Source: a virus (lineage: Duplodnaviria > Caudoviricetes). Taken from it: a stretch of DNA of 64,000 nt. The notes beneath the pieces are model-generated. The model saw nothing but the letters and a program-made list of their open reading frames with translations, was not told the origin of the DNA and ran no database searches. Where the stretch lies: positions 128,001 to 192,000 of IMG/VR virus record IMGVR_UViG_3300037067_027616; one strand, given 5' to 3'. Positions 47,766 to 64,000 of this stretch are shown here, piece by piece. The translations under genes and the position numbers were made by a program. Each line of letters begins with the position of its first letter. Within the stretch, counting starts at the first letter, position 1.

Positions 47766-47841
47766 TGGAGCCGATGAAGGGACTCAAACCCCCGACCCCC
47801 GCATTACAGGTGCGGTGCTCTATCAGCTGAGCTACATCGGC
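47766..47841 (-). tRNA. tRNA-Thr(TGT)
   Basis: Cloverleaf; C33, A19-U56. Confidence 0.85.
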
Positions 47842-47846
47842 TTATG

Positions 47847-49042: not shown

Positions 49043-49051
49043 CTGTCCATT

Positions 49052-49139
49052 TGGTGCCCGAACCCGGACTTGAACCGGGACGAGGGTTTACCCCCAAGAG
49101 GGTTTAAGCCTCTTGTGTCTTCCATTCCACCACTCGGGC
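49052..49139 (-). tRNA. tRNA-Leu(TAA)
   Basis: Cloverleaf, CCA. Confidence 0.9.
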
Positions 49140-49157
49140 AAAACCTGAAACAAAATA

Positions 49158-49772: not shown

Positions 49773-49778
49773 ATTGTG

Positions 49779-49807
49779 AATATACTAACTCGGTGTCCTT
49801 TTGTAAA
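49779..49807 (-). promoter_or_regulatory. possible internal sigma70 promoter (leaderless mRNA)
   Basis: TTTACA-17-TATATT just upstream of ATG. Confidence 0.5.
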
Positions 49808-49882
49808 CATCGATCCACCAATAAGTTGTTTATATCCCCTTCCGTTATGCAGGCGGCACACCAGTAACCTGAGGCACGCATC

Positions 49883-50257
49883 ATGGAAGAACAAGAATTA
49901 AAAGAAGTAATCCAAAAGCAACAGGTCGAATCCTGTGATGAGAGGTATGTCCTTGAAAAGGTATATTGGCAACGCACGGTCAAAATGCTTGTCATGATCG
50001 TGTCACTGCTGATCACATTATCAGGAGGCATAATCGCTTGGGGTTTCAAGACTTCCGCAGAGGTTACAAACAACACCCAAGGCAGACGGGAAATCGAACG
50101 CAGGATTAGTGACATCGAATCCTTTTACAGAATTGCCAACGAAAACTACAGCAATGTTGCCAAAAACCAATTGGAAGCCCTACAATACTCACAGAGATTG
50201 AGCAGAAAATTGGACATCCTCATAGAACGGGCCGGGGCAAAATATTTGGAAGAGTAG
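49883..50257 (+). CDS. single-TM coiled-coil membrane protein
   Basis: Hydrophobic segment; GAGG RBS; opposite strand to neighbours. Confidence 0.65.
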   Translation: MEEQELKEVIQKQQVESCDERYVLEKVYWQRTVKMLVMIVSLLITLSGGIIAWGFKTSAEVTNNTQGRREIERRISDIESFYRIANENYSNVAKNQLEALQYSQRLSRKLDILIERAGAKYLEE

Positions 50258-50260
50258 GTG

Positions 50261-50336
50261 TGGTGGAGCCTGAGAGAGTCGAACTCTCGGTCTCCTGCGT
50301 GCAAGGCAGGCGCTTTTCCAATTAAGCTAAGGCCCC
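50261..50336 (-). tRNA. tRNA-Ala(TGC)
   Basis: Cloverleaf, G3-U70, CCA. Confidence 0.92.
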
Positions 50337-50344
50337 ACAATGTT

Positions 50345-50421
50345 TGGAGCCCACGAGTGGATTCAAACCACCGACTTTTTCCTTACCAAGGAAATACTCA
50401 TATCAACTGAGTTACGTGGGC
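50345..50421 (-). tRNA. tRNA-Thr(GGT)
   Basis: Cloverleaf; A19-U56. Confidence 0.85.
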
Positions 50422-50728
50422 TTATCTACCGTATTTGATGCTTAACGATGCCGCTCCGGCTACGCACATCAAAAAAAGATCGTATGTCCTGATCGCATAT
50501 GTGGGTATCTTGCGTAGTTTGTGAATCGTATTTTTAAGTTGTTCTTCGTCCAACAGCAGCGGAACTATCGTCTTGTGAACTCCGTCATACACCATAAAAT
50601 GCACAAAACCTGGATACATAGTTCCTTCAGAAGCAACCGTCCAGGCTCCTTCCGTGTGTGCATACTCATACACAATTAATGATTCCTTTGTCTCCATGTG
50701 TGTGGAGAAAAATGAATGTGTTATTCGG

Positions 50729-50804
50729 TGGCAGGGTGAGAGGGCATCGAACCCCCAGCCTCAGGTTTTGGAGACCTGCGCTCTGCCGATTGAGCTATCA
50801 CCCT
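50729..50804 (-). tRNA. tRNA-Trp(CCA)
   Basis: Cloverleaf, CCA. Confidence 0.92.
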
Positions 50805-52212
50805 AAAAGAGATATGAACTGATCGTAATTTTGTTTTGATCCGCCCACGCCCTCATAATTCGTTGCTCTTGAGGAGTAGGCGATCTGTTGCTCATACCAC
50901 GTGCTTGACAGATCTGCCCTTTGGTGAGTTCCATGGTGACCATCCTCCACGAGCCTTCCTTGTCAAACAACCTCAACGACCATATCGAGGATCTTCCCGA
51001 TGAGCAGGCCCATGTGTATGATGCCACGCAATGTTTCATGGCCCGGCCTTCATCGTACAGTTCCTTCGAGGTCAAAAGTTCCTTGATAATCCAAACCCTG
51101 CGGTTCTGCCCAGTTCCTTCCTCGAGCCGGAAGTCAGACACCACGCTGTGACTCCAAGAGGACGCACCTTTTTTAGCCTTTCCAAGTTCTTTGTGCCACC
51201 GTTCAACTTGATCCATCAAGGTATTGGCGTTCCGGCCGTTCATGCTGAAGTTTGGTTGTTCGGGATTTTGAGTAACGATGTTGCCTCGGTCGTCATATTC
51301 ATTGCGTATCTCATATTTAATGTGGCATATGTAATCGATGATCGGACCATATTGATTCGAGTCGAGCATGGGATTTGCAATGAGAAATTTTATAAACGAC
51401 TGCCGGAACTCATCATCAAACCGTTGCATGCGAGTGCCCCGCAAACGGGATGATATCCTCGTGTCCCCGCCGAGGGCAACGACCTGGCCATGTAAGAGGG
51501 CATCTATTACAGAGAAATACCCGGGGGCTTCAAGGAAATGGTGCGCCATCTTTTTCGTCAGCGGGAACGGAAGATTTCTCGCCGTCCGTATGTTGTTGCC
51601 GTTCCCTATGTGTATGTACCACTCTTGATGGAGTTGTTCATCAGCCTCCCAAACGCTGTCCATGAAGGTTGGTATGGGATACTTCGTGAAAAGGTGCCGT
51701 AACAACGATGATATCTGCCGTTGCAAGCTGTGGCTCTTCACCACCCACGTGGTGGGATCCTTTATCCAATACGGGGACCACCTCGCGATTTTTATGAGCA
51801 TCCTGATCGCTTGGGTGTCTTTAAGGATCTTTGACCGGTCATTACCTTTTCCAGACACGGAGTCGACAAGTTTGATTAAAGATCTTTTTGTGTCTTCGTC
51901 TAAAACAGACCTGTGATCAAACAGCGCGTTAGAAACAGAGGAAAATTCACACGATTTAGTTGGGTCTTGCAGGACCCTGTGAATGGCTTCCCGTTCGTTT
52001 CGAGGGGTGTGACTGCTTTTTTCCAAAGCTTTGATAGCCTTGTCTGCTTTGTATATCGAGGCCTCCCGTGCAATTTGCCAAGGGGTTTTATACCACGTGG
52101 CCTCAAACCCTGCTTCCTGGCACCACTCAAGGTACTTCGGCATCTCCAAACCGAAGCTACGAAGTATGACTTGTTCGGCGCTCTCCTTGTTGTACTTTTT
52201 CTGTACGGCCAT
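50803..52212 (-). CDS. PcfJ-domain protein
   Basis: EGRAMKHCVASY...SIWSLR...QARG..NR. Confidence 0.85.
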   Translation of the reverse strand: MAVQKKYNKESAEQVILRSFGLEMPKYLEWCQEAGFEATWYKTPWQIAREASIYKADKAIKALEKSSHTPRNEREAIHRVLQDPTKSCEFSSVSNALFDHRSVLDEDTKRSLIKLVDSVSGKGNDRSKILKDTQAIRMLIKIARWSPYWIKDPTTWVVKSHSLQRQISSLLRHLFTKYPIPTFMDSVWEADEQLHQEWYIHIGNGNNIRTARNLPFPLTKKMAHHFLEAPGYFSVIDALLHGQVVALGGDTRISSRLRGTRMQRFDDEFRQSFIKFLIANPMLDSNQYGPIIDYICHIKYEIRNEYDDRGNIVTQNPEQPNFSMNGRNANTLMDQVERWHKELGKAKKGASSWSHSVVSDFRLEEGTGQNRRVWIIKELLTSKELYDEGRAMKHCVASYTWACSSGRSSIWSLRLFDKEGSWRMVTMELTKGQICQARGMSNRSPTPQEQRIMRAWADQNKITISSYLF

Positions 52213-52223
52213 AAGGTCACCTT

Positions 52224-53111
52224 CTACAGGATGACGATTCTGACATCAGGTACTCCCGCAGGATCCGCCTCTATGACTGCGGCGATTAGTTTGGAGGTTT
52301 CCACCCACGGGTGTCTCATGAGGTAGTCTTCTCTCATGGTTTCCATCCTCGAGGGGTCGATGACGGCGGCGGACAGATACTGTCCAGGTTGCACGACAAC
52401 GGTTCTGCCGATGGTGGCTGTACGTATTTTTGTCCTCCAGGGGCATTCATGTATGTGTCCGGACAATACCATGTACGGCTGCTTTTCCTCAATCCATTCT
52501 TTGATGGCGTTTGACCCGACCTCGCGGCCATCTATGCACACATCCAACCCGACCAATTTGGGAGGGGAATGTATGGCTATTATCTCGTTCGGCTTCGCCT
52601 TTCTCGACCGCAAATCATCTTCGATGGTGCCTTTTTTTCGGAAGTATTCTTTCACATCTATTATGGGTACCAACCCGTGTTCGGTGTCTTCTGTGGGTAT
52701 CTGTATATACGATTCAGGTTTCCACCCCTTGTGGTCATACTTGCAGGCGGTCTTCAACCCGAACGGATAGTCAGGCACGTACGGGTATCCAGTAAACGTA
52801 AACCCCTCGAAATCGATGGGTTTCTCATCGATGAGATCCCCGCATCTTTCCCGGTAGAGGGGTTTGCGTGTCCACAAGTCATCATTGCCAAACATGGCCA
52901 TGAACTTTATGTCCTTATCTCCGCACTTCTTGATGAACCCCGGCAAGAATTTCTTTATGAATTCCTTCTGCCGCGGTTGCATGGAGTAACCTTTTGGGAG
53001 TATGTCGGCTCCCACGTGAAGGAGTTTTGCTCCTTCAGTTACGCATAAATCGAGAGCCTTTGCGTACTTCCCCTCATCCCCATGTAAATCTGTGGCATAA
53101 ACGAACTTCAT
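52224..53111 (-). CDS. calcineurin-like metallophosphoesterase
   Basis: TDLHG, GAD, GNDD, HSPP, SGHIHE. Confidence 0.85.
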   Translation of the reverse strand: MKFVYATDLHGDEGKYAKALDLCVTEGAKLLHVGADILPKGYSMQPRQKEFIKKFLPGFIKKCGDKDIKFMAMFGNDDLWTRKPLYRERCGDLIDEKPIDFEGFTFTGYPYVPDYPFGLKTACKYDHKGWKPESYIQIPTEDTEHGLVPIIDVKEYFRKKGTIEDDLRSRKAKPNEIIAIHSPPKLVGLDVCIDGREVGSNAIKEWIEEKQPYMVLSGHIHECPWRTKIRTATIGRTVVVQPGQYLSAAVIDPSRMETMREDYLMRHPWVETSKLIAAVIEADPAGVPDVRIVIL

Positions 53112-53137
53112 TCGTCACCCCATTCAAAAGGTAAGAT

Positions 53138-53166
53138 AATATACTATTTTGAATATCTTTTGTCAC
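53138..53166 (-). promoter_or_regulatory. possible internal sigma70 promoter
   Basis: GTGACA-17-TATATT. Confidence 0.5.
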
Positions 53167-53175
53167 CTTGAATTT

Positions 53176-53254
53176 TGGTAGGATCGGTGAGATTTGAACT
53201 CACGACCAGCTGCTTATAAGGCAGCTGCTCATCACCAGGCTGAGCTACGATCCT
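53176..53254 (-). tRNA. tRNA-Ile(TAT)
   Basis: Cloverleaf with UAU anticodon, CCA. Confidence 0.88.
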
Positions 53255-53303
53255 ACAAACCGGAGTGTGCTGACAATGAAGCATGTCCATACTTTGATAA
53301 TTG

Positions 53304-53376
53304 TGGAGCTGAGGGGGATCGAACCCCTGGCCTCGACATTGCGAACGTCGCGCTCTCCCAGCTGAGCTACAGCCCC
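53304..53376 (-). tRNA. tRNA-Ala(CGC)
   Basis: Cloverleaf, G3-U70; CCA not encoded (CAA). Confidence 0.9.
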
Positions 53377-53397
53377 GTATTAGATTCTTAAAATTTG

Positions 53398-53694
53398 TCA
53401 TGCGGCCCAAGGACGTATATCAGAAAGATCTTCCTGCCAAGGTCTGCAGTATCTTTTCTCCTGCATAGTCCTTTTGTCTTTGTTCCAACGACTTCTACGT
53501 GGGTTTCCGCAGGAAGAACAAGAACACAATTTGGTCGTGTTCCTTCTCAAGTAACCCCAACGTTCGAGAAGTTTCTTCTTCTGTTCTTCGGTACACCATG
53601 TCCACCGGTATGAACTGGTTTCACCGCGAGCACGTGCGTCACCTTTCCACTTTCCTACGAGGAAGCGTTCCCGGCGATTGCGGGGATGAGGCAT
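53398..53694 (-). CDS. small basic protein (CSCxxCGNPRR)
   Basis: AAGGAGG RBS; Arg/Lys-rich. Confidence 0.75.
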   Translation of the reverse strand: MPHPRNRRERFLVGKWKGDARARGETSSYRWTWCTEEQKKKLLERWGYLRRNTTKLCSCSSCGNPRRSRWNKDKRTMQEKRYCRPWQEDLSDIRPWAA

Positions 53695-53797
53695 CAGTAA
53701 CCTCCTTATGAGTTAAATACTGATTGCCATCATTTTACCCCTTTGTTGGAAAAGTGATTACACTATCATCTTTTAAAAATGAGTAGATGATTAATTT

Positions 53798-53873
53798 TGG
53801 TGGAGCTGGCGAGGGTCGAACTCACTACCTCCTCGTAGCCAACGAGGCGCTCTCCCAATTGAGCTACAGCCCC
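53798..53873 (-). tRNA. tRNA-Ala(GGC)
   Basis: Cloverleaf; U37; CCA. Confidence 0.9.
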
Positions 53874-53902
53874 ACATTGATAATATACTATCAAAAACAT
53901 TG

Positions 53903-54014
53903 AAATGGACTGCGGTCTCCGGTTCGCCTATGGGAGCCACCTGTGCTTGATAACGGGAGAGGTGGGCGCCCACGTCACCGCCATTCCGGTTCACACGATA
54001 CCCGCAGTCCATTT
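53903..54014 (-). ncRNA. unidentified ~105-nt structured RNA
   Basis: Terminal stem aaatggactgcgg/ccgcagtccattt, internal stem and possible pseudoknot. Confidence 0.6.
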
Positions 54015-54020
54015 TTGTTT

Positions 54021-54098
54021 TGGAGCCAACGACTGGACTCGAACCAGCAACCCCCGCATTACGAATGCGGTGCTCTACCAAATTGAAGCTACGTTGGC
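54021..54098 (-). tRNA. tRNA-Thr(CGT)
   Basis: Cloverleaf, CCA. Confidence 0.92.
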
Positions 54099-54099
54099 A

Positions 54100-54176
54100 T
54101 GGTGGGCGACAGAGGGCTCGAACCTCTGATCTCCGCGATGTGGACGCGGCGCCTTAGCCGACTGGGCCAGTCGCCC
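54100..54176 (-). tRNA. tRNA-Val(CAC)
   Basis: Cloverleaf; C33; CCA. Confidence 0.88.
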
Positions 54177-54186
54177 CTGAAGATTG

Positions 54187-54275
54187 TGGTGGGAGGTGAT
54201 GGAGTCGAACCACCCGAGCCCGTTAAAGGCAACAGCTCTACAGGCTGTCCCGCTACCCCTACGGTATAACCTCCC
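54187..54275 (-). tRNA. tRNA-Tyr(GTA)
   Basis: Cloverleaf, long V-arm, CCA. Confidence 0.9.
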
Positions 54276-54286
54276 ATAAATAAAAA

Positions 54287-54492
54287 GGGGACACTCCCGT
54301 AATTGGACTTCTGTTCTATGGCCACATTTGACTGAGCCCGAGACCCGTCCATTGTAGCCCTGCTCACCGGCTAGGACTGTTTTCGGTTGCTACCGAGGAA
54401 GTGCGGGCGACCTTGCGATCTCCTTCCACGAGCAGTGTAGGTCCAATTTCCTCACCGGACTGACGTCCGGCGCGTGACCTCGGAGTGTCCCC
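54287..54492 (-). ncRNA. rnpB: minimal RNase P-like RNA
   Basis: P1, P2 and P3 helices; GAGGAA and ACAGAA flanking a complementary P4 (AAUUGGAC/GUCCAAUU). Confidence 0.75.
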
Positions 54493-54497
54493 GGGAT

Positions 54498-54583
54498 TGG
54501 TGCTCAAGGAGAGACTTGAACTCTCACGAAGTTTCCCTCGGTGGGTTTTGAGTCCACTGGGTCTGCCATTCCCCCACTTGAGC
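54498..54583 (-). tRNA. tRNA-Leu(CAA)
   Basis: Cloverleaf, CCA. Confidence 0.9.
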
Positions 54584-54627
54584 ATGTTCATAATTTCACG
54601 AATGTTCACGTAAACGTGAACAAAAAT

Positions 54628-54711
54628 TGGTGCGGCTGACTGGATTTGAACCAGCAAGGCGTTTGCCATAACGTTCTTAGCGTTACGTGTATGCCATTCC
54701 ACCACAGCCGC
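54628..54711 (-). tRNA. tRNA-Leu(AAG)
   Basis: Cloverleaf with A34, CCA. Confidence 0.88.
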
Positions 54712-54718
54712 ATATTTA

Positions 54719-54874
54719 TAAGATCCGCGTCCGAGTCGATGGGGCGTCTTCTTTCGAAGACTGATTAACCATCAGTTGCTCCACCCTGGAGCATACTCCC
54801 CATAAGTGGGGAGTCGTGGGATCGAACCACGCATACACGGAATGTACGCCCTCTCATGGAGGACGCGGATCTTA
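54719..54874 (-). ncRNA. circularly permuted tRNA-like / Y-RNA-like element 1 (loop GTT)
   Basis: Order T-arm, closed acceptor, D-arm, anticodon arm, inside a 14-bp terminal stem. Confidence 0.8.
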
Positions 54875-54882
54875 ATTTCAGT

Positions 54883-55042
54883 AGGACACCGTCCGAGTCG
54901 ATGGAGCGTCATCGTCAGATGATGGTTTAGAGACCATTGCGTTTACCATTTCGCCATCCCGGCATTGGTGCCGGGGCCAGGATTTGAACCTGGAGTTGCC
55001 TTTCGGCTTAAATGTACGCTTCGTCCTGGAGGACGGTGTCCT
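54883..55042 (-). ncRNA. circularly permuted tRNA-like / Y-RNA-like element 2 (loop CTA; ACCA in acceptor loop)
   Basis: Same architecture and conserved flanks. Confidence 0.8.
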
Positions 55043-55048
55043 TTTTCT

Positions 55049-55134
55049 TGGTGCGGATGAAAGGATTTGAACCTTCATGGGTGTTAGCCCACTAGCGCCT
55101 GAAACTAGCGTGTCTGCCTTTCCACCACATCCGC
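55049..55134 (-). tRNA. tRNA-Leu(CAG)
   Basis: Cloverleaf, CCA. Confidence 0.9.
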
Positions 55135-55144
55135 GCATCTTAAT

Positions 55145-55293
55145 GGGATCCCCGCCTGAGTCGACGGAGCAAGTGACGCATTTTGACTGTTTTACTGACA
55201 GTTGCCTTACCATTTGGCTATTCCCCCATATAAGGGGGAATCAGGAGTTGAACCTGAAGAGTGTATGCTTTCATCATGGAAGGCGAGGATCCC
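55145..55293 (-). ncRNA. circularly permuted tRNA-like / Y-RNA-like element 3 (loop GTA)
   Basis: Same architecture and conserved flanks. Confidence 0.8.
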
Positions 55294-55302
55294 TAACTTG
55301 TT

Positions 55303-55380
55303 TGGGGTGACCGGCGAGACTCGAACTCGTAACCGCTGGATTCACAATCCAGTGCTCTGACCAATTGAGCTACGGCCACC
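55303..55380 (-). tRNA. tRNA-His(GTG)
   Basis: Cloverleaf, G-1:C73, CCA. Confidence 0.92.
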
Positions 55381-55392
55381 ATAATTCTCCTT

Positions 55393-55466
55393 TGGAGCTG
55401 GCGCCCAGATTTGAACTGAGGATGAAGGTTTTGCGGACCTTTGCCTTTCCACTTGGCTACGCCAGC
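55393..55466 (-). tRNA. tRNA-Cys(GCA)
   Basis: Cloverleaf, U73, C33, CCA. Confidence 0.9.
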
Positions 55467-55623
55467 ATAAGGTAACAAGGAGGAGGGAACGGGCCGGGGA
55501 GCACCGCCCCCACCCCTTGATGCTATTGACATGACTGCGTCCCGCATCAGCGGGCGCATTCATCATGTGCTTCATGCAAACAATCCGTATTTTCAATGAA
55601 CCAGAAACCACAAACAACTCCGT

Positions 55624-55668
55624 AAAAACTTAAAGGCCCCCGTCCGAATCTCTCCGGGCGGGGGCCTT
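55624..55668 (-). terminator. attenuator A terminator
   Basis: AAGGCCCCCGCCCGGA-GAGA-TTCGGACGGGGGCCTT followed by TAAGTTTTT; 5' arm can alternatively pair with 55700-55714. Confidence 0.85.
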
Positions 55669-55690
55669 CTGGTTTTCGCTATGGGCTTGT

Positions 55691-55813
55691 TCAGCCCTTC
55701 AGAAGTCCCCCGCCGTAACTATCCCACGTGAGGTGCAAATACGACAGTCGGCATGCGGCTATCGCTTGCACGTTTGTGGATGATCCGGTTAGTAAGGACT
55801 CTCTGCGTTTCAT
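55691..55813 (-). CDS. leader peptide A (MKRRESLLTGSSTNVQAIAACRLSYLHLTWDSYGGGLLKG)
   Basis: CAGGAG RBS after promoter; codons match all 20 downstream tRNAs. Confidence 0.85.
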   Translation of the reverse strand: MKRRESLLTGSSTNVQAIAACRLSYLHLTWDSYGGGLLKG

Positions 55814-55835
55814 TTGAAAACTCCTGATGGCTCCA

Positions 55836-55864
55836 AATATACCACACAAAAATGGTTTTGTCAA
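55836..55864 (-). promoter_or_regulatory. sigma70 promoter of tRNA array A
   Basis: TTGACA-17-TATATT. Confidence 0.85.
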
Positions 55865-56094
55865 CCTGTTTCTTCCAAAGGCCTTTGGGACAGCGGGAAC
55901 AGCCTCTCATCCACCTGCTTTACGAGGCTCCAAAGTGATGGACACTCCGGCCCATCACCGTAGGTGCTTATGTACTGCCGGATGTACGCACGGGCGTTTT
56001 CAAGTTGCTCGCGGGTCATGCACCCTGTGGTCGTGGACACCGCCTTGGTGAACGCTGTTTCCTTCTCGCTCAACTGCTCGGTGACATCGTCCAT
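55861..56094 (-). CDS. hypothetical protein
   Basis: AAGGAG RBS. Confidence 0.6.
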   Translation of the reverse strand: MDDVTEQLSEKETAFTKAVSTTTGCMTREQLENARAYIRQYISTYGDGPECPSLWSLVKQVDERLFPLSQRPLEETG

Positions 56095-56104
56095 AGGGTC
56101 TCCT

Positions 56105-56557
56105 TTACCAGGTGACTACGAACGGCCCGAAATGGAAACCTTTGCACCATTTACAGGCGTACCCATCTCCTTTGAAAGGCACCGGCCGCGTGACAAGGAA
56201 AAGGCTGAAACGCCAGTCGAAAGGCACGATCTGCAGGCCGATGTCATCGACTTTGTCATACAGCTTCCACCACCATTTCTTTTCGCGCTCCGTGCGCTCC
56301 GCCTCGTGCTTTTCGTACTCCGGGTCAGGCTCATACACTTTTTCCTCATCCGCCTCAAGCCCGAACACTACTTTCAATACGTCATCCCGCTCTTCATCCG
56401 GAAAATCAAAACAAATACCCGCGCTGTCATCATCACCTTTTTTCAGCAATTTCCATATGCAACAACCGACACCGTCCGGGTAGCGTATTTTCTCACCCCG
56501 ATACTCGTTTGATCTCACCATGGTCGTCCCCCTTTTGTATCGGGATAAACTAATCAA
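56105..56557 (-). CDS. hypothetical protein
   Basis: ORF; start probably at MVRS (56521). Confidence 0.65.
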   Translation of the reverse strand: MISLSRYKRGTTMVRSNEYRGEKIRYPDGVGCCIWKLLKKGDDDSAGICFDFPDEERDDVLKVVFGLEADEEKVYEPDPEYEKHEAERTEREKKWWWKLYDKVDDIGLQIVPFDWRFSLFLVTRPVPFKGDGYACKWCKGFHFGPFVVTW

Positions 56558-56561
56558 GACA

Positions 56562-57224
56562 TTATTGCGAGGGACTATAGATTCCTTTGTCCACTATGAA
56601 AGCGAGAACCATACTCGAGAGTCCTGCTTTCAGTATCCCCGGCACGGGGGTGGTCCTGTCCTTCCACGTATGCAATGCCTCGCGTGCTTTCGTGGATGAC
56701 ATGTCGGGTGTGGCCAGGCCCTCCAGATACCTGTGACCACCGGTGGTGTACCATGCCCCGGGGATGTGAACGTATCCCGGCCGTGGCACAACGATAAACG
56801 ATGCGAAGATCCGCAGTTCCTCAAAGTGCTTCCACCTGCCAAAATCGAGGGCATTGTCCAAGCCTATGACGAATTTGAAGGTCACATCTTCGTAGTCGCC
56901 GGCGAGGTTCATGGCCGTCTTCATGGTGCTGCCGTCATCCCAACAGGACCACCGTTTGGCGACTTCAAACTCGAAGTCGCTGACGATTATGCGCTTCTCT
57001 CCTTCAGGCACGGCGAGTGTACACAATTTCACCCGTTCGGAGAAGTCTGTCATGACCTTGCCGAAACAATGATCGATGCACGGCATCAGCCATACCTCAT
57101 CCACCTTGAGTGTCGGGTTGTTGAGTATCCCCAAGGCAACATCGATGTGTCCCGTGGTCGGCGGGTCGAAAGATCCCCCGAACACAGCCACCACCTTGGT
57201 CGGTTTTTTATCCGTGACGGTCAT
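56562..57224 (-). CDS. nadD: nicotinate/nicotinamide mononucleotide adenylyltransferase
   Basis: FGGSFDPPTTGH, IGLDN, W, MSST. Confidence 0.85.
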   Translation of the reverse strand: MTVTDKKPTKVVAVFGGSFDPPTTGHIDVALGILNNPTLKVDEVWLMPCIDHCFGKVMTDFSERVKLCTLAVPEGEKRIIVSDFEFEVAKRWSCWDDGSTMKTAMNLAGDYEDVTFKFVIGLDNALDFGRWKHFEELRIFASFIVVPRPGYVHIPGAWYTTGGHRYLEGLATPDMSSTKAREALHTWKDRTTPVPGILKAGLSSMVLAFIVDKGIYSPSQ

Positions 57225-58067
57225 TCACTCTCCTCAAAGTGGTGGATATTGTAGATTGTGAAGTCGAAAACCGTGTGGTTAAAAAGGGCAAACCGCACGA
57301 AGAATTGAGGATTGTGATCCCCTTTGAACCAACTGAAGTTTACATCAGCGTTTATTACGGTAAGTCCGTCTTTGAAGGAACGGTATTGATAGAACACGCA
57401 CAAATCCATGGCGTAGTTTTTGCCAAGTTTTATACTGAATCCTGTCATGATTGTTACTCCTTATCTCCTTTGAAGAAGCCCATCTTTCTCTTCTTCGCTG
57501 GACGCCATTCCTTGAGGAAGCTTACGAATCTCACTATGGTCTCGAAGGCGATAATCACGGAAACAACAATGTTCAACGCCGTCACGAAAACATTTAGGGC
57601 GTTACCCATCCGTATACCTTGTCGACTGCCAGAAAACGACTTGGTCATAGATCTCCTGTGGTCACCACAGGAATATACCAAACTTAACGGCAAAATTACT
57701 TAAAATTTTAGCGGCACCGTGTTATTTGACACGGATTCGTAGAGATGTTTGGCACGCAGATATGCTTCACGGGATACGGGCTTGGGATTGCCAAGGCTCT
57801 CGATGAACCTCTTGGCATCCCGTCCCGTAAGGGTGGGTGTGGGTTTTGGTAGGGTTTCCAACACCTTTTTGAGTTCAAGGTTCACAGGGGTACTCCGGTA
57901 GGTTCCTTGTGGTCATGGACGCGCTGTAGCTTCACTACAGTCTCCTTGGGAAGAGAGGTGGTGTCCAGATACCCTTGGGCTATTTGACGTGCCTGGAGGT
58001 TGTCTAGGGCCTCGTAGGGGATTTTAATGACCAATTGGTATTGGTATAGTTCGAGTTTGTCGGGCAT
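57221..58067 (-). other. four small hypothetical ORFs
   Basis: Tightly packed ORFs 57221-57448, 57454-57649, 57700-57885, 57882-58067. Confidence 0.5.
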
Positions 58068-58084
58068 GTGGACACCTTTCAAAA

Positions 58085-58177
58085 TGGCGGAGGGTGAAGG
58101 ATTTGAACCTTCGGTAGAGCTTTTGGCCCTACAGACGTTTAGCAAACGCCCGCTTTAGACCTCTCAGCCAACCCTCC
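58085..58177 (-). tRNA. tRNA-Ser(GCT)
   Basis: Cloverleaf, long V-arm, CCA. Confidence 0.92.
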
Positions 58178-58180
58178 GTT

Positions 58181-58269
58181 TGGTAGGTCCGGGTGGAATT
58201 GAACCACCGTTTACCTTTCGGCCCCTTGCGTATCAGACAAGTGCTCTAACCGGGCTGAGCTACGGACCT
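58181..58269 (-). tRNA. tRNA-Ile(GAT) with atypical long variable arm
   Basis: Cloverleaf; V-arm GCC-GAAA-GGT. Confidence 0.85.
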
Positions 58270-58276
58270 GCATATA

Positions 58277-58369
58277 TGGTAGCGGGGGCAAGATTCGAAC
58301 TTGCGACCTCCGTTAGGAAGTTCTGGCTTATGAGGCCAGTGACTTAGACCTGCTCTAGTCTACCCCGCA
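58277..58369 (-). tRNA. tRNA-Met(CAT), initiator-like, long variable arm
   Basis: U1xU72 mismatch, GCGGGG acceptor, V-arm CTTCC-TAAC-GGAGG. Confidence 0.8.
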
Positions 58370-58375
58370 ATGTAT

Positions 58376-58747
58376 TCATCTCAACTCTATTTTTGCCCCG
58401 ACCTCCTCGAACCTCGTTTTGAGAGCCTCGGCCTCCGCTTTCGCGAGTCCGTCCTTTATCACCGCTCCTGGCACCGTGTTCTTGCCGGCGTCCATCAAAC
58501 TTGCTCCGGTCACCTCACGGAGTATCTTGATGACTTGGATGCGTTTTTCTCCGACCTCTGACAATACTACCGAGAACTCTGTCTGTTCCTCGACCACCGG
58601 CGCCGTGTTTACCTGTGGCACCATCGGTGTAATCACATCCGAAGCCTTCACCCCAAATTTTTCTTCAAGCGCCCGGGTGAGTTCGACAAGTTCCATCACG
58701 GTCATCGACCCGAAGGCTTCAAGCAGCTGCTCGTTTGTATAAGACAT
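58376..58747 (-). CDS. rplL: ribosomal protein bL12 (L7/L12)
   Basis: MTVMELVELTRALEEKFGV...EEQTEFSVVL...IQVIK; start MSYTN after CAGGAG RBS. Confidence 0.93.
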   Translation of the reverse strand: MSYTNEQLLEAFGSMTVMELVELTRALEEKFGVKASDVITPMVPQVNTAPVVEEQTEFSVVLSEVGEKRIQVIKILREVTGASLMDAGKNTVPGAVIKDGLAKAEAEALKTRFEEVGAKIELR

Positions 58748-58771
58748 GTCTATCTCCTGTCTTTGAATGTC

Positions 58772-58850
58772 TGGTACCGGAAGCCGGGGTCGAACCGGCG
58801 ACAGACCTGCCGTATGAGAGCAGCGCTCTACCACGCTGAGCTATTCCGGT
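58772..58850 (-). tRNA. tRNA-CAT (elongator Met or Ile2)
   Basis: Cloverleaf, CCA. Confidence 0.88.
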
Positions 58851-58857
58851 ATAACTT

Positions 58858-59226
58858 TTACTGCAAAACTTTCAGCTTGTATTTCTTCACCAATCCTTCT
58901 ATTTCTTTTTGATCCGAGTTTATCCACAAGAAATGCTCCGGACTCGTCATCGTCCTGAAACCTGTTTCCAAGTACCATTTCCAATTTTCGAAGCCCCTCC
59001 GATGGATGAACACACAAAGAGATCCAGGTAACAGCTTCATTACATCCTCAAAAGACATTTGAACAGTTTGTCTTTGATATGACTTTTTGCAATCTAACGT
59101 ATCCACCCACCAATGAAAAGATTTTTCCTTTGCCTCACGAAGAAGACTTTCCTGTCTTTTCAAAGAAAGCCTCTGAATATCGTAAAAAACATCAGGACTG
59201 TGGATCATTTTCTCCGTGCTTTCCAC
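58858..59226 (-). CDS. hypothetical protein
   Basis: ORF in operon. Confidence 0.6.
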   Translation of the reverse strand: MESTEKMIHSPDVFYDIQRLSLKRQESLLREAKEKSFHWWVDTLDCKKSYQRQTVQMSFEDVMKLLPGSLCVFIHRRGFENWKWYLETGFRTMTSPEHFLWINSDQKEIEGLVKKYKLKVLQ

Positions 59227-59462
59227 AACGGGTCAGGATCGTATGACTCCATCACCCCGTTTCTCCAATAATAACTTGTCCAAGGTTCCCATTTCCACCG
59301 ATAATCGCAGATATCCCAAGGATTGAAATATCTGCGGTACGCATTACCGTTTGGAACATCTTCCGTGTTTCTGACGATACGGTTGGCGTACCTCTTCATC
59401 CAACGCTTGCGTGCGGTACCATACCCATCGACAGTCCACGGCTCCCTGTAGGAACGTGACAT
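59205..59462 (-). CDS. small basic protein (MSRSY...ANRIVR...WDICDY)
   Basis: AAGGAG RBS; Arg/Trp-rich. Confidence 0.7.
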   Translation of the reverse strand: MSRSYREPWTVDGYGTARKRWMKRYANRIVRNTEDVPNGNAYRRYFNPWDICDYRWKWEPWTSYYWRNGVMESYDPDPLWKARRK

Positions 59463-59527
59463 GCTCCAGCTCCTTTGTTAAGGTAACTAATGCATGTGTT
59501 CCCCCTTTTCTTTTGTTTGACGTGTGT

Positions 59528-59743
59528 TCATGCCGCTTCTACCATTTCCTCACGGTACTTCCTGATGTACCGCATAAGATAAATAGCTTTGTCATCACGT
59601 AGGAAAGTGGCATTGCCCACATCGCTGATCGGTACCGGGAACAGAAAACCTGAGTCCGTTTTGTACCACAGTTCATTGTCCCTGTAGTACTGGAAGTGGG
59701 CTTTCTGCTCCTTCACCAGGTCAATCAGCTTCGGCGTGGACAC
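59528..59743 (-). CDS. hypothetical protein
   Basis: GTG start with RBS; FPVPISDVGNATF motif. Confidence 0.7.
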   Translation of the reverse strand: MSTPKLIDLVKEQKAHFQYYRDNELWYKTDSGFLFPVPISDVGNATFLRDDKAIYLMRYIRKYREEMVEAA

Positions 59744-59763
59744 CTGACACCTTCCTTTCTATT

Positions 59764-59841
59764 TGGCGGGGGTGACGAGGCTCGAACTCGCGAATCTCGA
59801 CCGTGACAGGGTCGCGTGCTAACCAGCTGCACCACACCCCC
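59764..59841 (-). tRNA. tRNA-Asp(GTC)
   Basis: Cloverleaf, G73, CCA. Confidence 0.92.
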
Positions 59842-60018
59842 GTATTTTACTTGTCCTCAACTACATCGAACCAATCTCCTGCGATCGTGTAGCAACTATG
59901 ATCCTCTTCGCGTTCCTTTGATATCTTCCTGCATTTCTCGCACTCACCCTCTGCGGTCGTGTGCACGCAGATCACTTCCTCGTACAGAGGATCCCAATTC
60001 ACGAATACCTTTGCCATG

Positions 60019-60336
60019 TTATGCTACTTCCTGCTTAAGGATATTCTCTTCAATGTACTTCTTTACCATCCTTGGTGTAACTGATATATTGCCGTACTCA
60101 GCGCAACCATAACACTCGGCACAATGCTCTTCTGTCACACCACAACGCTCTGGAGACAACTTGAAATACTCCAACGGCACTCGGTAGAACTTCTTTGTCG
60201 GAGAGTATATGCCGATTGTTCCTTTGACTCCATTTATTAGGTTGAGTAATCCTTGGAGTCCATTCACTACCCCAACTTTCCGAGTCGACCACACCCAAGC
60301 CTCTCCATTGATGTGCACTTTTCTCGGGGAACTCAT
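60019..60336 (-). CDS. hypothetical protein
   Basis: GGGAG RBS. Confidence 0.6.
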   Translation of the reverse strand: MSSPRKVHINGEAWVWSTRKVGVVNGLQGLLNLINGVKGTIGIYSPTKKFYRVPLEYFKLSPERCGVTEEHCAECYGCAEYGNISVTPRMVKKYIEENILKQEVA

Positions 60337-60359
60337 AGTGTGTCACTCCCTCTCAAATT

Positions 60360-60436
60360 TGGTGGTCCCGAACGGATTTGAACCGCTGACGCCCAGGTCT
60401 TCGGCCTGGCGCTCTACCGGGCTGAGCTACAGGACC
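60360..60436 (-). tRNA. tRNA-Phe(GAA)
   Basis: Cloverleaf; C33, G37; CCA. Confidence 0.9.
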
Positions 60437-60516
60437 ACGATATAACACGTGGCCCTTGTAGCCACGTGTTTATGTAGAGTCTGTAAATCGATCTTCCATC
60501 TCATATCTCCTAAACG

Positions 60517-60553
60517 AAAAAACCCCACCGATCCTTTTGGGCCCGGTGGGGTT
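60517..60553 (-). terminator. attenuator B terminator
   Basis: CCCCACCGG...TCGGTGGGG followed by TTTTTT; 5' arm can alternatively pair with GCCCGGTGG after the leader stop. Confidence 0.85.
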
Positions 60554-60578
60554 CAGAATGCTAACGAGTCCACCGGGC

Positions 60579-60650
60579 TTACATGGCAATATCCATGCTA
60601 TCAAAGTCGATAGCGCTGAAGATAATGCTGATGCCGATGGTAGTACGCAT
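60579..60650 (-). CDS. leader peptide B (MRTTIGISIIFSAIDFDSMDIAM)
   Basis: AAGGAG RBS after promoter; Ile/Ser(AGC)/Phe/Asp/Met-rich. Confidence 0.85.
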   Translation of the reverse strand: MRTTIGISIIFSAIDFDSMDIAM

Positions 60651-60683
60651 TGAAAGTATTGCTCCTTTTACGACGTTGGGCAT

Positions 60684-60712
60684 AATATACCACGGATTTA
60701 GAAGATTGTCAA
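60684..60712 (-). promoter_or_regulatory. sigma70 promoter of tRNA array B
   Basis: TTGACA-17-TATATT. Confidence 0.85.
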
Positions 60713-60725
60713 TAGGAATCTTATA

Positions 60726-61148
60726 TTAAGTGATCCCTGCGAGTATCTTGCCCCTCAACATGCCCTTCAAAAGGTCAACTTCACCTTCCGACTTATCCAT
60801 TGCCCTCAACCATCCAGTGACATCTTCGAGGATTAAGTCTGTTGTAGCTTCCGCCTCTATTTTATCAATGTTGTAGTCGGGATGAGCCTTCATCGCCTGA
60901 TCATAGGCCCTCTTGCCTTGGGCGCTGTCTACATACTCTTGATAGAGTTTATTCACATACTGTTGACTTTTATTCTTAAGATAGTCTGCGGTAATGAACC
61001 CTTGCGCGGTCACGGATTGGTCAATAGTATTGCTTACCACATCCAAATCATGAGCCTCTTTGATCATACCGAGGGATTCAAGATGGGAAGCTATTTTGTC
61101 GAGTTTCTTTGCGATGTCTTTCATAGGGTCATCAAAAATGATATTCAT
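60726..61148 (-). CDS. hypothetical protein with shared module
   Basis: LDKIASHLESLGMIKEAHDLDVVSNTID. Confidence 0.75.
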   Translation of the reverse strand: MNIIFDDPMKDIAKKLDKIASHLESLGMIKEAHDLDVVSNTIDQSVTAQGFITADYLKNKSQQYVNKLYQEYVDSAQGKRAYDQAMKAHPDYNIDKIEAEATTDLILEDVTGWLRAMDKSEGEVDLLKGMLRGKILAGIT

Positions 61149-62016
61149 TCAAATGTTGCAGTATGTCCGCTGCGTTCTCTTTTATTTCTTTTTCATAATC
61201 TCGTTGTGGGACCATAGATGACCTTGGGTCTTGAGAATTTTGGCTTATTGATACTACGGCTAAACCGTCCCCAATTCGTATTGTTATGGTGCTAACAACC
61301 ACAAAGCTTTCGTATAGTTTAGCTCTCCTCTGTGCCTTCGAAACTAGGTATCCTGGAGCGCCTCCTGTTGAGTCGAGAGCCATACCAACGCCAAAAGTCA
61401 TTCGACCGTATGTGCTGTCAACTACTTCCACGGATCCAACTGTTCTTCCTGGTTTCTGCTTTAGAAACTCATCAACTATTGGGTTAGAACCACCAAAAAC
61501 TTCCCCCAAAACTTGGGTTTTTGATACCTTCTTAGTTGGTGTTTCAGCTGTTGTATCTGCGGTATCTTGTTTTAAAGCCTGCCATTCTAGGCGTTCCTTT
61601 TGAATTGCGTCTTTAAACTTCCCAGCGTCTGCGGTCTGAAACACCCCCATTAAAGCTATAATGGCAAGAATGACTTTTGGGTTTGTGATTGTCTTTACAC
61701 CCCTCATCAATCCTTGTAGGTTAAAAGCCTCTTTATTAGAAGCCTGCCGTACCATTGAATTACCACCAAGTGCCCCGGCTATTTCATTGATAGCAACTTC
61801 CAATTTTCCTGGAGAGGTTTGCGCGAAATCGAGTACGATTTTGAGGGCTTCCTCTTTAGAAGGTAGTCCGGGTATTTTTGATACAATACCACGGATCCAT
61901 TGCCCCGCACCTGCCTCCAAAGTATTACTCACCACATCCAAATCGTGTGCCTCTTTGATCATCCCAAGGGACTCAAGGTGTGTGGAGAGGGAATCAAGGC
62001 GGTAAGTGATTTTCAT
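61132..62016 (-). CDS. hypothetical protein with shared module and TM segment
   Basis: LDSLSTHLESLGMIKEAHDLDVVSNTLE. Confidence 0.75.
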   Translation of the reverse strand: MKITYRLDSLSTHLESLGMIKEAHDLDVVSNTLEAGAGQWIRGIVSKIPGLPSKEEALKIVLDFAQTSPGKLEVAINEIAGALGGNSMVRQASNKEAFNLQGLMRGVKTITNPKVILAIIALMGVFQTADAGKFKDAIQKERLEWQALKQDTADTTAETPTKKVSKTQVLGEVFGGSNPIVDEFLKQKPGRTVGSVEVVDSTYGRMTFGVGMALDSTGGAPGYLVSKAQRRAKLYESFVVVSTITIRIGDGLAVVSISQNSQDPRSSMVPQRDYEKEIKENAADILQHLNEYHF

Positions 62017-62030
62017 GATATGATGCCTTA

Positions 62031-62774
62031 TTAAAACTTGGGTTTCAGTTCTTTGGCATTATCTAATGCTGTTTTGTATTCTTTGTTATCCGGATACATT
62101 TTGCAAAGCCTGTCTATAGCGTTGACAATTTGCTGTTTGTTTTCTTCCCCAAGAAAACCCCTGCCTACAATCGTGTAATAAAACCCGTGTAATACCTCTT
62201 TAGCAGGAAGGTCGCTATTATTAACATTAACTAATTCCTCATCCGTGGGATCCCTGTATGTTGTGTACGTAAATATAGAGGGTTTTTCGTTGGCTTTTTT
62301 GATCGTGCCAAGTGTTTCGGGGTGAGAAGAGTAGGGCTTTTTGTTTGCCATGACCTTATTGACTTCATCACCAAGCGTACGCGCTATTTCCGGGTATTTC
62401 TTCAAAGTAGCTACAGAGGCGCGATAGGCGCTGGAATTATCCATATCAAGAGATTCTTGTAGAAGATCCGATAGGGCTATCCGAATGTTTTCTGGCAGCA
62501 CTCTCTGGATATACGCCTCGTCAAGGAGACTGCTTGTGGCTTCGAGTGTATTACTGACGACATCCAAATCATGGGCCTCTTTGACCATCCCGAGGGACTC
62601 AAGGTGTGAGGCTATTTTATCAAGTGCAGAAGATAATTTTGCACGTAATACCTTACCGGTTTGATCAATGGTCGCACCACAATGTGGGCAGATAATTGCA
62701 CCCATGGCCACTTCAGGAGTGTTACCATAATCAACTTCTTTTCCACATCCTTGACATTTTACCTTATTAGTCAT
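62031..62774 (-). CDS. Zn-ribbon protein with shared module
   Basis: CQGC...CPHC; LDKIASHLESLGMVKEAHDLDVVSNTLE. Confidence 0.75.
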   Translation of the reverse strand: MTNKVKCQGCGKEVDYGNTPEVAMGAIICPHCGATIDQTGKVLRAKLSSALDKIASHLESLGMVKEAHDLDVVSNTLEATSSLLDEAYIQRVLPENIRIALSDLLQESLDMDNSSAYRASVATLKKYPEIARTLGDEVNKVMANKKPYSSHPETLGTIKKANEKPSIFTYTTYRDPTDEELVNVNNSDLPAKEVLHGFYYTIVGRGFLGEENKQQIVNAIDRLCKMYPDNKEYKTALDNAKELKPKF

Positions 62775-62801
62775 GTGCTTATCAATTCTCTCTTTTTGGC
62801 T

Positions 62802-63077
62802 TCAACGATCTATATCGGCTGTTACCTCACGAGACACCGCTTCTTTGAGATAAATATGAGCCACCTTGAGGGGTTTAGTTCCCTTGCTCTCACGCGCCAT
62901 TGAACGAGCAGCTTGTTCACGAGTTTTATGAGACGTTCCAATGTGAGGTTGACCCATAACAACCCATCCCACACCCCCGATACGTGTCCAACCCTTTACA
63001 ATATTACCAAGAACGACCCCATCCTCGCTCACTTCATATTCTTCTTCGTTTATTTTGTGGTACGTGAAGTTACTCAT
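62802..63077 (-). CDS. hypothetical protein
   Basis: ORF flanked by 19-bp direct repeats. Confidence 0.6.
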   Translation of the reverse strand: MSNFTYHKINEEEYEVSEDGVVLGNIVKGWTRIGGVGWVVMGQPHIGTSHKTREQAARSMARESKGTKPLKVAHIYLKEAVSREVTADIDR

Positions 63078-63108
63078 CCTACATTCCGGTTTCAGAATAT
63101 GTTTACTA

Positions 63109-63369
63109 TCAATTCTCTCTTTTTGCTTTTGCTACTTCTGATTCTAGGGACCCAAGGCGGGCAGAGTGGTTGCTGAGGCGTTCACTTAACAACGTATTTA
63201 CGTACCCCAGCGTGTCAGTGATTTTGTCCAATTTTCTGTCAAATTTCGAAAAGTATTCCAAGAACACCTTGTTGCACTTCTGCTCTTGTTGTGAAATGGC
63301 CTCTTTAAGTTGATCAGGGGTGATGTGGGATTTTCCGTTTCCGCCGCTGTTAGGTGTCTTGGAGTTCAC
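63109..63369 (-). CDS. coiled-coil hypothetical protein
   Basis: GTG start, GAGGA RBS. Confidence 0.55.
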   Translation of the reverse strand: MNSKTPNSGGNGKSHITPDQLKEAISQQEQKCNKVFLEYFSKFDRKLDKITDTLGYVNTLLSERLSNHSARLGSLESEVAKAKREN

Positions 63370-63384
63370 GGTGTCTTCCTCAAG

Positions 63385-63939
63385 TTAGTTGGACGGTTGG
63401 TTGCCCGATTCAATGGTGTTACTCACCACATCGAGGTCATGAGCCTCTTTGACCATCCCGATGGACTCAAGGCGGTCAGCAATTTTGTCTAAAGCAAACG
63501 GCACTGAAGCTTCTTTTGTTTTTACACCCAATGACTTAAGCATTTCTATCCGCTTTGAGTCAGTGACGTTCATTGGAGACAGAGGGGTGTATGTGAACGT
63601 AATATCGAACCTGTCGAGAGGATCCTCAACAGAGCCTGCGCCGTGTGCCTTTATCTGTGCAGGAACAACGCGTTGTACGCCTGCAGGGGTGACAAAAACT
63701 CCTAGGAAATTCCAAATCTTCGATTTGTTTGGCATCTCATTGTCGTAGAAGGATTCCACGAGACTGAATGTAGGAAGGATATCTTTGAGTTCCTTCATCA
63801 TCTTTTGGATGGGCGCCCAAGACGTGTCGTCCTTGTAAAAGTCGTGCGTGTACTTGTCGGAAATGCGACCAAAAGCGGACTTCAACTTTGCATCGGTCAT
63901 TACCGGGAGGGATTCAGTCTGCACACCGGATTCATTCAT
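63385..63939 (-). CDS. hypothetical protein with C-terminal shared module
   Basis: LDKIADRLESIGMVKEAHDLDVVSNTIE. Confidence 0.75.
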   Translation of the reverse strand: MNESGVQTESLPVMTDAKLKSAFGRISDKYTHDFYKDDTSWAPIQKMMKELKDILPTFSLVESFYDNEMPNKSKIWNFLGVFVTPAGVQRVVPAQIKAHGAGSVEDPLDRFDITFTYTPLSPMNVTDSKRIEMLKSLGVKTKEASVPFALDKIADRLESIGMVKEAHDLDVVSNTIESGNQPSN

Positions 63940-64000
63940 ACTATCCTCTATTTCTTAACAGGGTGCTTCACAACCCTCACCGGAGCCGAAGTACGAACGA

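Follow-up and report, generated by a model that had tools for sequence, protein, structure and literature searches.

A likely leader-peptide attenuator, matched by codon to its own tRNAs, at the head of a phage tRNA operon

Results

Anatomy of the leader unit

The window analyzed here is a 64,000-nucleotide stretch of the genome of a virus of the Caudoviricetes, spanning bases 128001–192000 of the 466,729-bp IMG/VR record IMGVR_UViG_3300037067_027616, which has a G+C content of 49%, is listed as a provirus by IMG/VR and has an estimated completeness of 98% (CheckV). The element under study lies at 60517–60712 on the minus strand and consists of a promoter, a short leader open reading frame (ORF), two competing RNA helices and an intrinsic terminator. 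It heads a block of six tRNA genes, which were identified with ARAGORN and lie on the same strand. The unit is likely to be a leader-peptide transcription attenuator, which couples transcription of this tRNA operon to the speed at which the codons of its own tRNAs are decoded. Positions below refer to the minus strand of the window unless a genome or contig position is given.

The promoter comprises the −35 hexamer TTGACA (60707–60712), a spacer of 17 nucleotides (nt) and TATATT with an extended −10 element (TGG-TATATT, 60684–60692; hexamer 60689–60684). It scores 11/12, and only three such matches occur in 19 kb. In the homologues described below, TTGAC and TATATT are both invariant. The Shine-Dalgarno sequence (SD), AAGGAG, is located at 60662–60667, 11 nt before the ATG at 60650, and the homologues have either AGGAG or GGGAG at this position followed by a conserved ACTTTC(A/T)ATG. 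The leader ORF (60579–60650) contains 23 codons, ends with TAA (60581–60579) and has the sequence MRTTIGISIIFSAIDFDSMDIAM.

The leader transcript contains several elements that can pair. Region 1 (CCAUCGG, 60634–60640) covers codons 4–6 and is the predicted partner of region 2 when the leader is untranslated. Within the ORF, codons 13–18 form the hairpin GCUAUC-GACUUU-GAUAGC (60597–60614), the stem of which is invariant in six homologues, synonymous sites included. Region 2, GCCCGGUGG (60570–60578), begins at the first base after the stop codon and is the 5′ strand of the antiterminator, as indicated by folding and covariation. Here, GCCCGGTGG at 60578–60570 is perfectly complementary to CCACCGGGC at 60549–60541. 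The latter is region 3 (60541–60549), which, by the same two lines of evidence, is common to the antiterminator and to the 5′ arm of the terminator. The terminator itself (60517–60554) is a hairpin at 60554–60520 with a U6 tract at 60522–60517.

Two mutually exclusive helices

The terminator has a predicted energy of −22.8 kcal/mol (z = −3.8) and the 9-bp antiterminator one of −20.2 kcal/mol, and each is better than all 200 shuffled sequences. Both helices use the same seven bases, CCACCGG, and are therefore mutually exclusive. In the full-length minimum free energy (MFE) structure, codons 4–6 pair with region 2 and the terminator is formed (1:2 + 3:4), which is the state expected without a ribosome. 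Pairing of early codons with region 2 is predicted by MFE in all homologues, where the alignment is too gapped for covariation to be counted. The hairpin of codons 13–18 is a candidate RNA polymerase pause hairpin, being an alternative to 1:2 as the pause element.

A cmscan of 44000–64000 (E ≤ 1) produced tRNA-like matches, one RNase P-like match and a few weak, unrelated ones; at 60517–60712, neither the leader families of Rfam nor the T-box matched.

Codon match of the leader to its tRNAs

Between this terminator and the next promoter scoring 11/12 (55864), ARAGORN finds tRNA-Phe (GAA), tRNA-Asp (GTC), two tRNAs with a CAT anticodon, tRNA-Ile (GAT) and tRNA-Ser (GCT). The first gene of the cluster is tRNA-Phe (60360–60436), which is followed by tRNA-Asp (59764–59841), the first CAT tRNA (58772–58850) and a group at 58085–58369 that contains the second CAT tRNA (93 nt), tRNA-Ile and tRNA-Ser. 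All were also recovered in an Rfam scan. Together, these tRNAs read nine codons, which are referred to as the codon set.

Within the leader there are six Ile codons (four ATC and two ATT), three Ser (all AGC), three Asp, two Phe and two Met. In total, the set accounts for 16 of the 22 sense codons, as against a background of 18.0% calculated from the 282 long ORFs of the genome (binomial P = 2.9e-8). None of the 2566 ATG-started ORFs of 18–45 codons in the genome reaches the leader's 73%, and the highest value is 52%. A chance origin of the codon match was rejected on these two results. In addition, the leader contains the exact Watson-Crick codon for 5/5 tRNA species (P = 0.005).

The match extends to the choice between synonymous codons. 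AGY accounts for 28% of Ser codons genome-wide, whereas all three Ser codons of the leader are AGC. The leader never uses AUA, which is the most frequent Ile codon genome-wide and has its tRNA-Ile (UAU) in the next block. TCN codons are placed in another leader (55813–55691), the cluster of which carries Ser-GGA, Ser-CGA and Ser-TGA.

Much of this had been proposed in an initial annotation of the window, and its description held up well. The promoter, AAGGAG, ORF, stop-adjacent pairing and U6 terminator that it listed are all present on the minus strand at the same positions; its count of 16 Ile, Ser, Asp, Phe or Met residues among codons 5–23 was reproduced, and its list of six downstream tRNAs is identical to that from ARAGORN. 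The separation that it described, of AGC codons here from TCN codons in a leader next to the TCN-reading tRNAs, is likewise seen in the codon and tRNA tables.

Homologues conserve the codon set and the switch

Relatives of the unit were not found among GenBank phages, where a distant blastn search with 57900–61200 matched unrelated tRNA genes alone and a tblastn search with the L7/L12 homologue of the operon returned unrelated records alone. IMG/VR contained no relative of the 294-aa protein encoded upstream of the unit, and three DNA patterns derived from the leader were also without a match there. Homologues were reached on metagenome contigs, to which protein searches led when the products of two genes, the 294-aa one upstream and an 85-aa one of the operon, were used as queries. 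The homologous unit is present in L003, L004 and L005; L007; L017; L055 and L056; and L057. They represent five diverged homologues (L003/L005, L007, L017, L056 and L057), and comparisons that include the window therefore involve six sequences.

The 85-aa proteins of these contigs are 55–64% identical to that of the window. At the nucleotide level, the stretch from leader to terminator is 62–82% identical, as against 63–68% for the neighbouring 85-aa gene. Thus, the leader is conserved as well as, or better than, a neighbouring protein gene. The promoter, the codon set and the stop-adjacent antiterminator are kept in all five homologues, and region 2 starts 0–1 nt past, or 1 nt inside, the stop codon in six of six sequences. 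On contigs that extend through the whole block, the tRNAs that follow are Phe, Asp, two or three CAU, Ile-GAU and Ser-GCU; the L056 and L057 contigs break off before the last block genes. The Ile-GAU tRNA of L007 (contig positions 3904–3980) is highly atypical, having been missed by ARAGORN and recovered by the Rfam tRNA model at 32.7 bits. L017 also carries leaders of the Asn/Pro/Gln and 20-tRNA types that are described below, in the same order as in the window.

The leader peptides are MRTTIGIGIGISIVFSAIDFDSMDIAM in L003, with one extra Ile-Gly unit in L005; MTARISIIIASDAISFDSDMDDIV in L007; MQSVQTTIIIGIDAISFDSDMSDFM in L017; MRTTVSISIVFSAISFDSMDIAM in L056; and MRGTIGIGSIFSAISFDSMDITM in L057. 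Each homologue has 15–18 of its 22–28 sense codons within the set. Ser is encoded by AGY in 22 of 23 homologue codons, the exception being codon 3 of L017, and Ile is encoded by AUC or AUU only. Replacements remain within the codon set, as at codon 15, where Asp GAC becomes Ser AGC or AGT. What is conserved is the codon set and the switch and not simply the peptide.

Covariation was counted in an in-register alignment of the six sequences (A4). For the antiterminator, 96.1% of cells are paired and three pairs have changed on both sides (C-G/U-A, G-C/A-U and U-A/C-G), with 0 of 500 shuffles reaching the score. For the terminator, 93.9% of cells are paired and four pairs have changed on both sides, with 1 of 500 shuffles reaching the score. 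Both signals are lost once the partners are shifted by one to three columns. Moreover, each of two bases in region 3 covaries with its region 2 partner and its region 4 partner alike. The triplet across regions 2, 3 and 4 is U/A/U in the window and C/G/C in L003, L007 and L017, and the neighbouring triplet is G/C/G, becoming A/U/A in L003. Such a pattern, in which two helices that exclude each other are both under selection, is what marks a switch.

Two further observations concern the leaders of single contigs. The near-identical L003 (3962–3985) and L005 (1203–1232) differ within the regulatory stretch of the leader by one unit of an ATCGGC (Ile-Gly) repeat, a copy difference attributable to slippage that would adjust how many Ile test codons are present. 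In L056 (565–621), the SD is separated from the leader ATG by an insertion of about 30 nt that forms a small hairpin (CACUUUC..GAAAAGUG); translation would begin from this SD if the hairpin draws it towards the start codon, or else rely on a different start signal.

Five units in one genome

The tRNA region contains five exact TTGACA-N17-TATATT promoters, and behind each of them lie a short ORF, a terminator and a block of tRNA genes. The five blocks are Glu/Gly/Arg(AGR); Lys/Val/Arg(CGN); Asn/Pro/Gln; the present six-tRNA block; and a block of 20 tRNAs. When leaders and blocks are compared in a five-by-five matrix, every row has its top entry on the diagonal, and the true assignment of leaders to blocks is the best of 120 permutations, scoring 20.0 compared to 16.1 for the runner-up. 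The 39-codon leader at 55813–55691 has an exact cognate codon for 20 of the 20 tRNA species of its block (null mean 8.7, P < 5e-5). The synonymous families Ser AGY/TCN, Arg AGR/CGN and Ile AUY/AUA are divided among the leaders as their tRNAs are among the blocks, which points to matching by anticodon and not by amino acid.

Some of these units have features of their own. The leader of the Glu/Gly/Arg(AGR) block (genome 210451–210380, minus strand) starts 9 nt past the −10 hexamer and has no SD, and may be translated from a leaderless mRNA. It contains three ATA codons and no internal ATG, and its block has a CAT tRNA. A lysidine-type tRNA-Ile is one conceivable identity of this CAT tRNA and would account for the ATA codons; a domain search detected no TilS domain encoded anywhere in the genome. 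The Asn/Pro/Gln block is closed by a tRNA with a CTA anticodon, which reads amber (genome 195861–195937); this gene is also found in L017 and L057.

The operon and its surroundings

The genome encodes 49 tRNA genes and one tmRNA according to ARAGORN, and 47 of these tRNA genes lie on the minus strand inside 36 kb. Scanning from 60517 to the next promoter (55864) revealed neither a promoter nor a terminator of comparable quality, which would make this stretch an operon of 4.6 kb, more than half of which is occupied by protein genes. Inside the cluster is the gene for an L7/L12 ribosomal protein homologue (58376–58747; PF00542, 1.4e-17 and PF16320, 2e-11). A co-directional gene for a cytidylyltransferase-like (NadD-like) protein (56562–57224; PF01467, 2.3e-12) precedes the 55864 promoter, and the promoter and terminator scan places it, by inference, in the same operon. 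These are the two genes that the initial annotation named rplL and nadD. It is plausible that the attenuator controls both of them together with the tRNAs, as that annotation had suggested.

Between the terminator and tRNA-Phe lies a second mini-ORF, MEDRFTDST* (60499–60470), followed by a strong hairpin that has no U-tract (60469–60445), an arrangement present in four of five homologues. The mini-ORF has its own SD and is kept as M-x-(D/G)-R-F-T-x-x-x-T* in L007, L017, L056 and L057, being absent from L003. The hairpin ends 8 nt 5′ of tRNA-Phe and varies in sequence among the homologues. This region (60445–60510) may serve in processing or provide a second checkpoint. For the 105-aa ORF that comes after tRNA-Phe, no homologue was detected in the protein collection searched.

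At 58181–58369, tRNA-Ile (GAT), which is 89 nt long, and the 93-nt CAT tRNA have long extra arms, which are unusual for their identity. Further along the tRNA array, a 204-nt RNA (54288–54491) matches the archaeal RNase P model with 54.8 bits (E = 4.5e-13), the gathering score of 84 not being reached, and is a candidate for a minimal RNase P-like RNA of the phage.

Wider occurrence

The 85-aa protein (59205–59462) is basic, rich in Trp, Tyr and Arg, belongs to no Pfam family and has 141 metagenome relatives. At 22 of 37 IMG/VR loci of the family, tRNA genes are present on the same contig, which makes the protein a marker of such arrays, and it is possibly a tRNA-related factor.

The same logic is seen with different sequences on three AT-rich, unrelated phage contigs, L011, L015 and L027, which have leaders of 39–42 codons and arrays of 15–26 tRNAs. 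Here, the end of the leader overlaps a competitor strand for the 5′ arm of the terminator that precedes the array. The leaders cover 14 of 15 tRNA species in L011 (P = 0.011), 20 of 22 in L015 (P = 0.0012) and 19 of 24 in L027 (P = 0.03). The automatic attenuator detector was strict and missed L3- and L5-type units that can be recognized by eye in L017 and L005, so that its negatives at other IMG/VR loci are uninformative.

Discussion

Proposed mechanism

The initial annotation had interpreted this unit as an attenuator whose leader is matched to its own tRNAs, and had seen in it an internal replication of the same system. The first reading is now supported by the structural parts, by five homologues and by covariation of both helices, and the second by five units in which each leader best fits its own block. 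While the anatomy, codon statistics, conservation and covariation of both helices are established directly, we infer, from established knowledge of attenuation and ribosome footprints, that the leader is translated and that ribosome coverage, pausing, conditional read-through and a physiological signal act as follows.

Host sigma-70 RNA polymerase would initiate at TTGACA-17-TATATT, about 7 nt past the −10 hexamer, and may pause after the invariant hairpin of codons 13–18 (60614–60597). A ribosome would follow the polymerase closely while translating the 23-codon leader. When Ile (AUC/AUU), Ser (AGC), Phe, Asp and Met codons are read fast, this ribosome would arrive at the UAA and cover region 2, as established toeprint distances suggest that it protects about 12–15 nt downstream, corresponding to the whole of region 2. 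With region 2 masked, region 3 would pair with region 4 and transcription would stop at the U6 before tRNA-Phe. When an aminoacyl-tRNA is scarce, the ribosome would stall with its A site somewhere in codons 5–19. This stretch holds all five amino acids: Ile at codons 5, 7, 9, 10 and 14; Ser at 8, 12 and 18; Phe at 11 and 16; Asp at 15 and 17; and Met at 19. Free region 2 would then capture nascent region 3, and the terminator would not form.

Read-through would yield tRNA-Phe, Asp, CAU, CAU, Ile-GAU and Ser-GCU, and probably the products of the interspersed genes, including those for the L7/L12 homologue and the cytidylyltransferase-like protein. As the new tRNAs would remove the stall, the result would be negative feedback in a homeostatic loop. 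In a transcript that is not translated at all, codons 4–6 are predicted to sequester region 2, leading to termination. Thus, the phage probably makes this six-tRNA set only when ribosomes read the corresponding codons slowly.

Several observations do not sit easily with this mechanism. At the start of the unit, the 11-nt spacing from SD to ATG, which is kept in four of five homologues, is above the usual optimum, and six of the 22 sense codons of the leader (CGT, ACT, ACC, GGC, GCT and GCC) are not read by the cluster. The 1:2 pairing is a prediction from folding energies; region 1 is also upstream of most of the regulatory codons, and a ribosome that stalled late would leave it uncovered. The last four codons, GAU AUU GCC AUG, are near region 2, where stalling should favour termination. 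Among the homologues, L056 and L057 have one mismatch per helix, which is an intermediate state, and the U-tracts are interrupted (UUCUUUCG). The genes upstream of the promoter are co-directional and no terminator separates them from it, allowing other transcripts to enter the leader. Finally, stalling is the same for a missing tRNA, a missing amino acid and an inhibited synthetase, and extra tRNA cures neither of the last two.

Alternative explanations

This last point is the starting place for the alternative that survives best, although it is unlikely. Here, the unit is a real attenuator that senses host amino-acid starvation or translation stress, its outputs are the protein genes (the L7/L12 homologue, the NadD-like enzyme and others) and the tRNAs are passengers. 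An uncharged tRNA does stall a ribosome as an absent one does, and protein genes fill more than half of the 4.6-kb operon. The partition of codons over the five leaders, however, tracks anticodons (Ser AGY/TCN, Arg AGR/CGN and Ile AUY/AUA), a split that is not needed to sense amino acids, and it is the tRNA set that the homologues hold constant while the interspersed ORFs vary.

It is very unlikely that the terminator is constitutive and leaky, keeping tRNA transcription constantly low or insulating the cluster from upstream, with the ORF and the alternative helix having no regulatory role. The absence of a terminator after the co-directional upstream genes fits such a function, as does the presence of the terminator in the full-length MFE structure. 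Neither accounts for an antiterminator with three two-sided pair changes and 96% pairing in diverged relatives, a stop codon 0–1 nt from region 2 in all six sequences, codon enrichment at P = 3e-8 or a strong, dedicated promoter immediately before the leader.

A functional peptide of 23 residues, hydrophobic and acidic, would reduce the hairpin to a plain terminator and the codon match to a consequence of amino-acid composition. Small peptides are common in phages, and the pattern MRTT..FSAI.FDSMDIAM is partly kept in four of six homologues. This explanation is nonetheless scarcely probable. The match is at the codon level (Ser as AGY in 22 of 23 codons and no AUA), and four further leaders with unrelated peptides fit their own clusters, the true assignment being the best of 120. 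L007 and L017 differ at both the N- and C-termini and have the same codon set, with replacements that stay within it. The difference in ATCGGC copy number between L003 and L005 would be odd for a structured peptide, and a plain terminator has no need of the competing helix that covariation shows to be kept.

Least probable of all is arrest of the ribosome by the nascent peptide in response to a small molecule or factor, as in TnaC, SecM and ErmCL, with the codons being irrelevant: the C-terminal FDSMDIAM, which ends at the stop codon, is kept in four homologues, but L007 (..FDSDMDDIV) and L017 (..FDSDMSDFM) differ in the C-terminal residues required for arrest, and both the synonymous-codon restriction and the five matches between leaders and clusters would be left unexplained.

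Implications

If the unit is an attenuator that responds to its own tRNAs, then a textbook leader-peptide attenuator has been redeployed so that the ribosome gauges the level of a tRNA on test codons, and transcription of the same tRNA corrects that level. This would provide a direct reason for giant phages to sort their tRNA genes into blocks and would allow near-complete tRNA sets to be carried without constant cost. Why phages carry tRNAs at all, be it for codon usage, host tRNA decay or anti-defence, would become testable through the conditions that open each attenuator. For synthetic biology, the leaders would be ready-made, orthogonal sensors of single isoacceptors.

A more speculative extension, which we regard as possible but doubtful, is that the five attenuators form a codon-resolved surveillance network, each one reporting how fast its own subset of the code is decoded and switching on replacement tRNAs for exactly that subset. 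The network would be a counter-defence against tRNA depletion during infection by host anticodon nucleases or host shut-off, and the phage tRNAs, several of which have unusual anticodon loops and variable arms, would be resistant substitutes.

Comparison with known systems

tRNA genes are generally viewed as being controlled by promoter strength and by growth-rate or stringent signals, and not by sensing of their own products. The present array resembles the tRNA clusters of T4, T5, large myoviruses and huge phages, in which small ORFs are also interspersed. The papers retrieved on those clusters invoke codon usage, loss of host tRNAs or escape from anticodon nucleases, and no description of leader-peptide attenuators was found in them. 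A full-text literature search, whose coverage did not extend to most subscription journals, found no account of attenuators before tRNA genes or phage tRNA arrays; one paper retrieved gives the term 'tRNA operon' a different meaning.

The T-box is similar in that conditional antitermination reports the state of a specific tRNA and the targets are related to translation. It binds uncharged tRNA directly via a specifier codon, and no ribosome is needed. The present unit differs in having an ORF that is presumably translated, and it has no T-box match in cmscan.

The mechanism is that of a classical leader-peptide attenuator, and no described sequence family matched it (Rfam, E ≤ 1). The following structural features of that class are present: a promoter and a short ORF with a ribosome binding site, enrichment of related codons, a terminator before the first gene, a mutually exclusive antiterminator and a region 2 adjacent to the stop codon. 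In the enterobacterial attenuators (ilvL of ilvGMEDA, thrL, trpL, hisL, leuL and pheL), a translated, codon-rich leader is combined with 1:2, 2:3 and 3:4 helices and a terminator. The multivalent leaders ilvL and thrL share with the phage unit the promoter, the leader codons, the alternative helices (1:2 being a prediction here), a stop codon placed for a terminating ribosome to mask region 2 and the probable sensing of several amino acids by one leader. In ilvL, thrL, trpL, hisL, leuL and pheL, the targets are biosynthetic enzymes, whereas here they are tRNA genes. The phage unit also differs from these leaders in that it is matched codon to anticodon, a single leader would sense five amino acids, the system is phage-encoded and five copies jointly cover most of the code, and there is no sequence similarity.

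In E. coli, the pheM leader of pheST is likewise a leader-peptide attenuator that has a target in the translation apparatus and senses the decoding of cognate codons. That system is cellular, its target is a synthetase and a single amino acid is sensed, whereas here the tRNA product itself would relieve the stall. The systems closest to the phage unit are the multivalent ilvL and thrL leaders in mechanism, and the pheM leader of pheST in target class.

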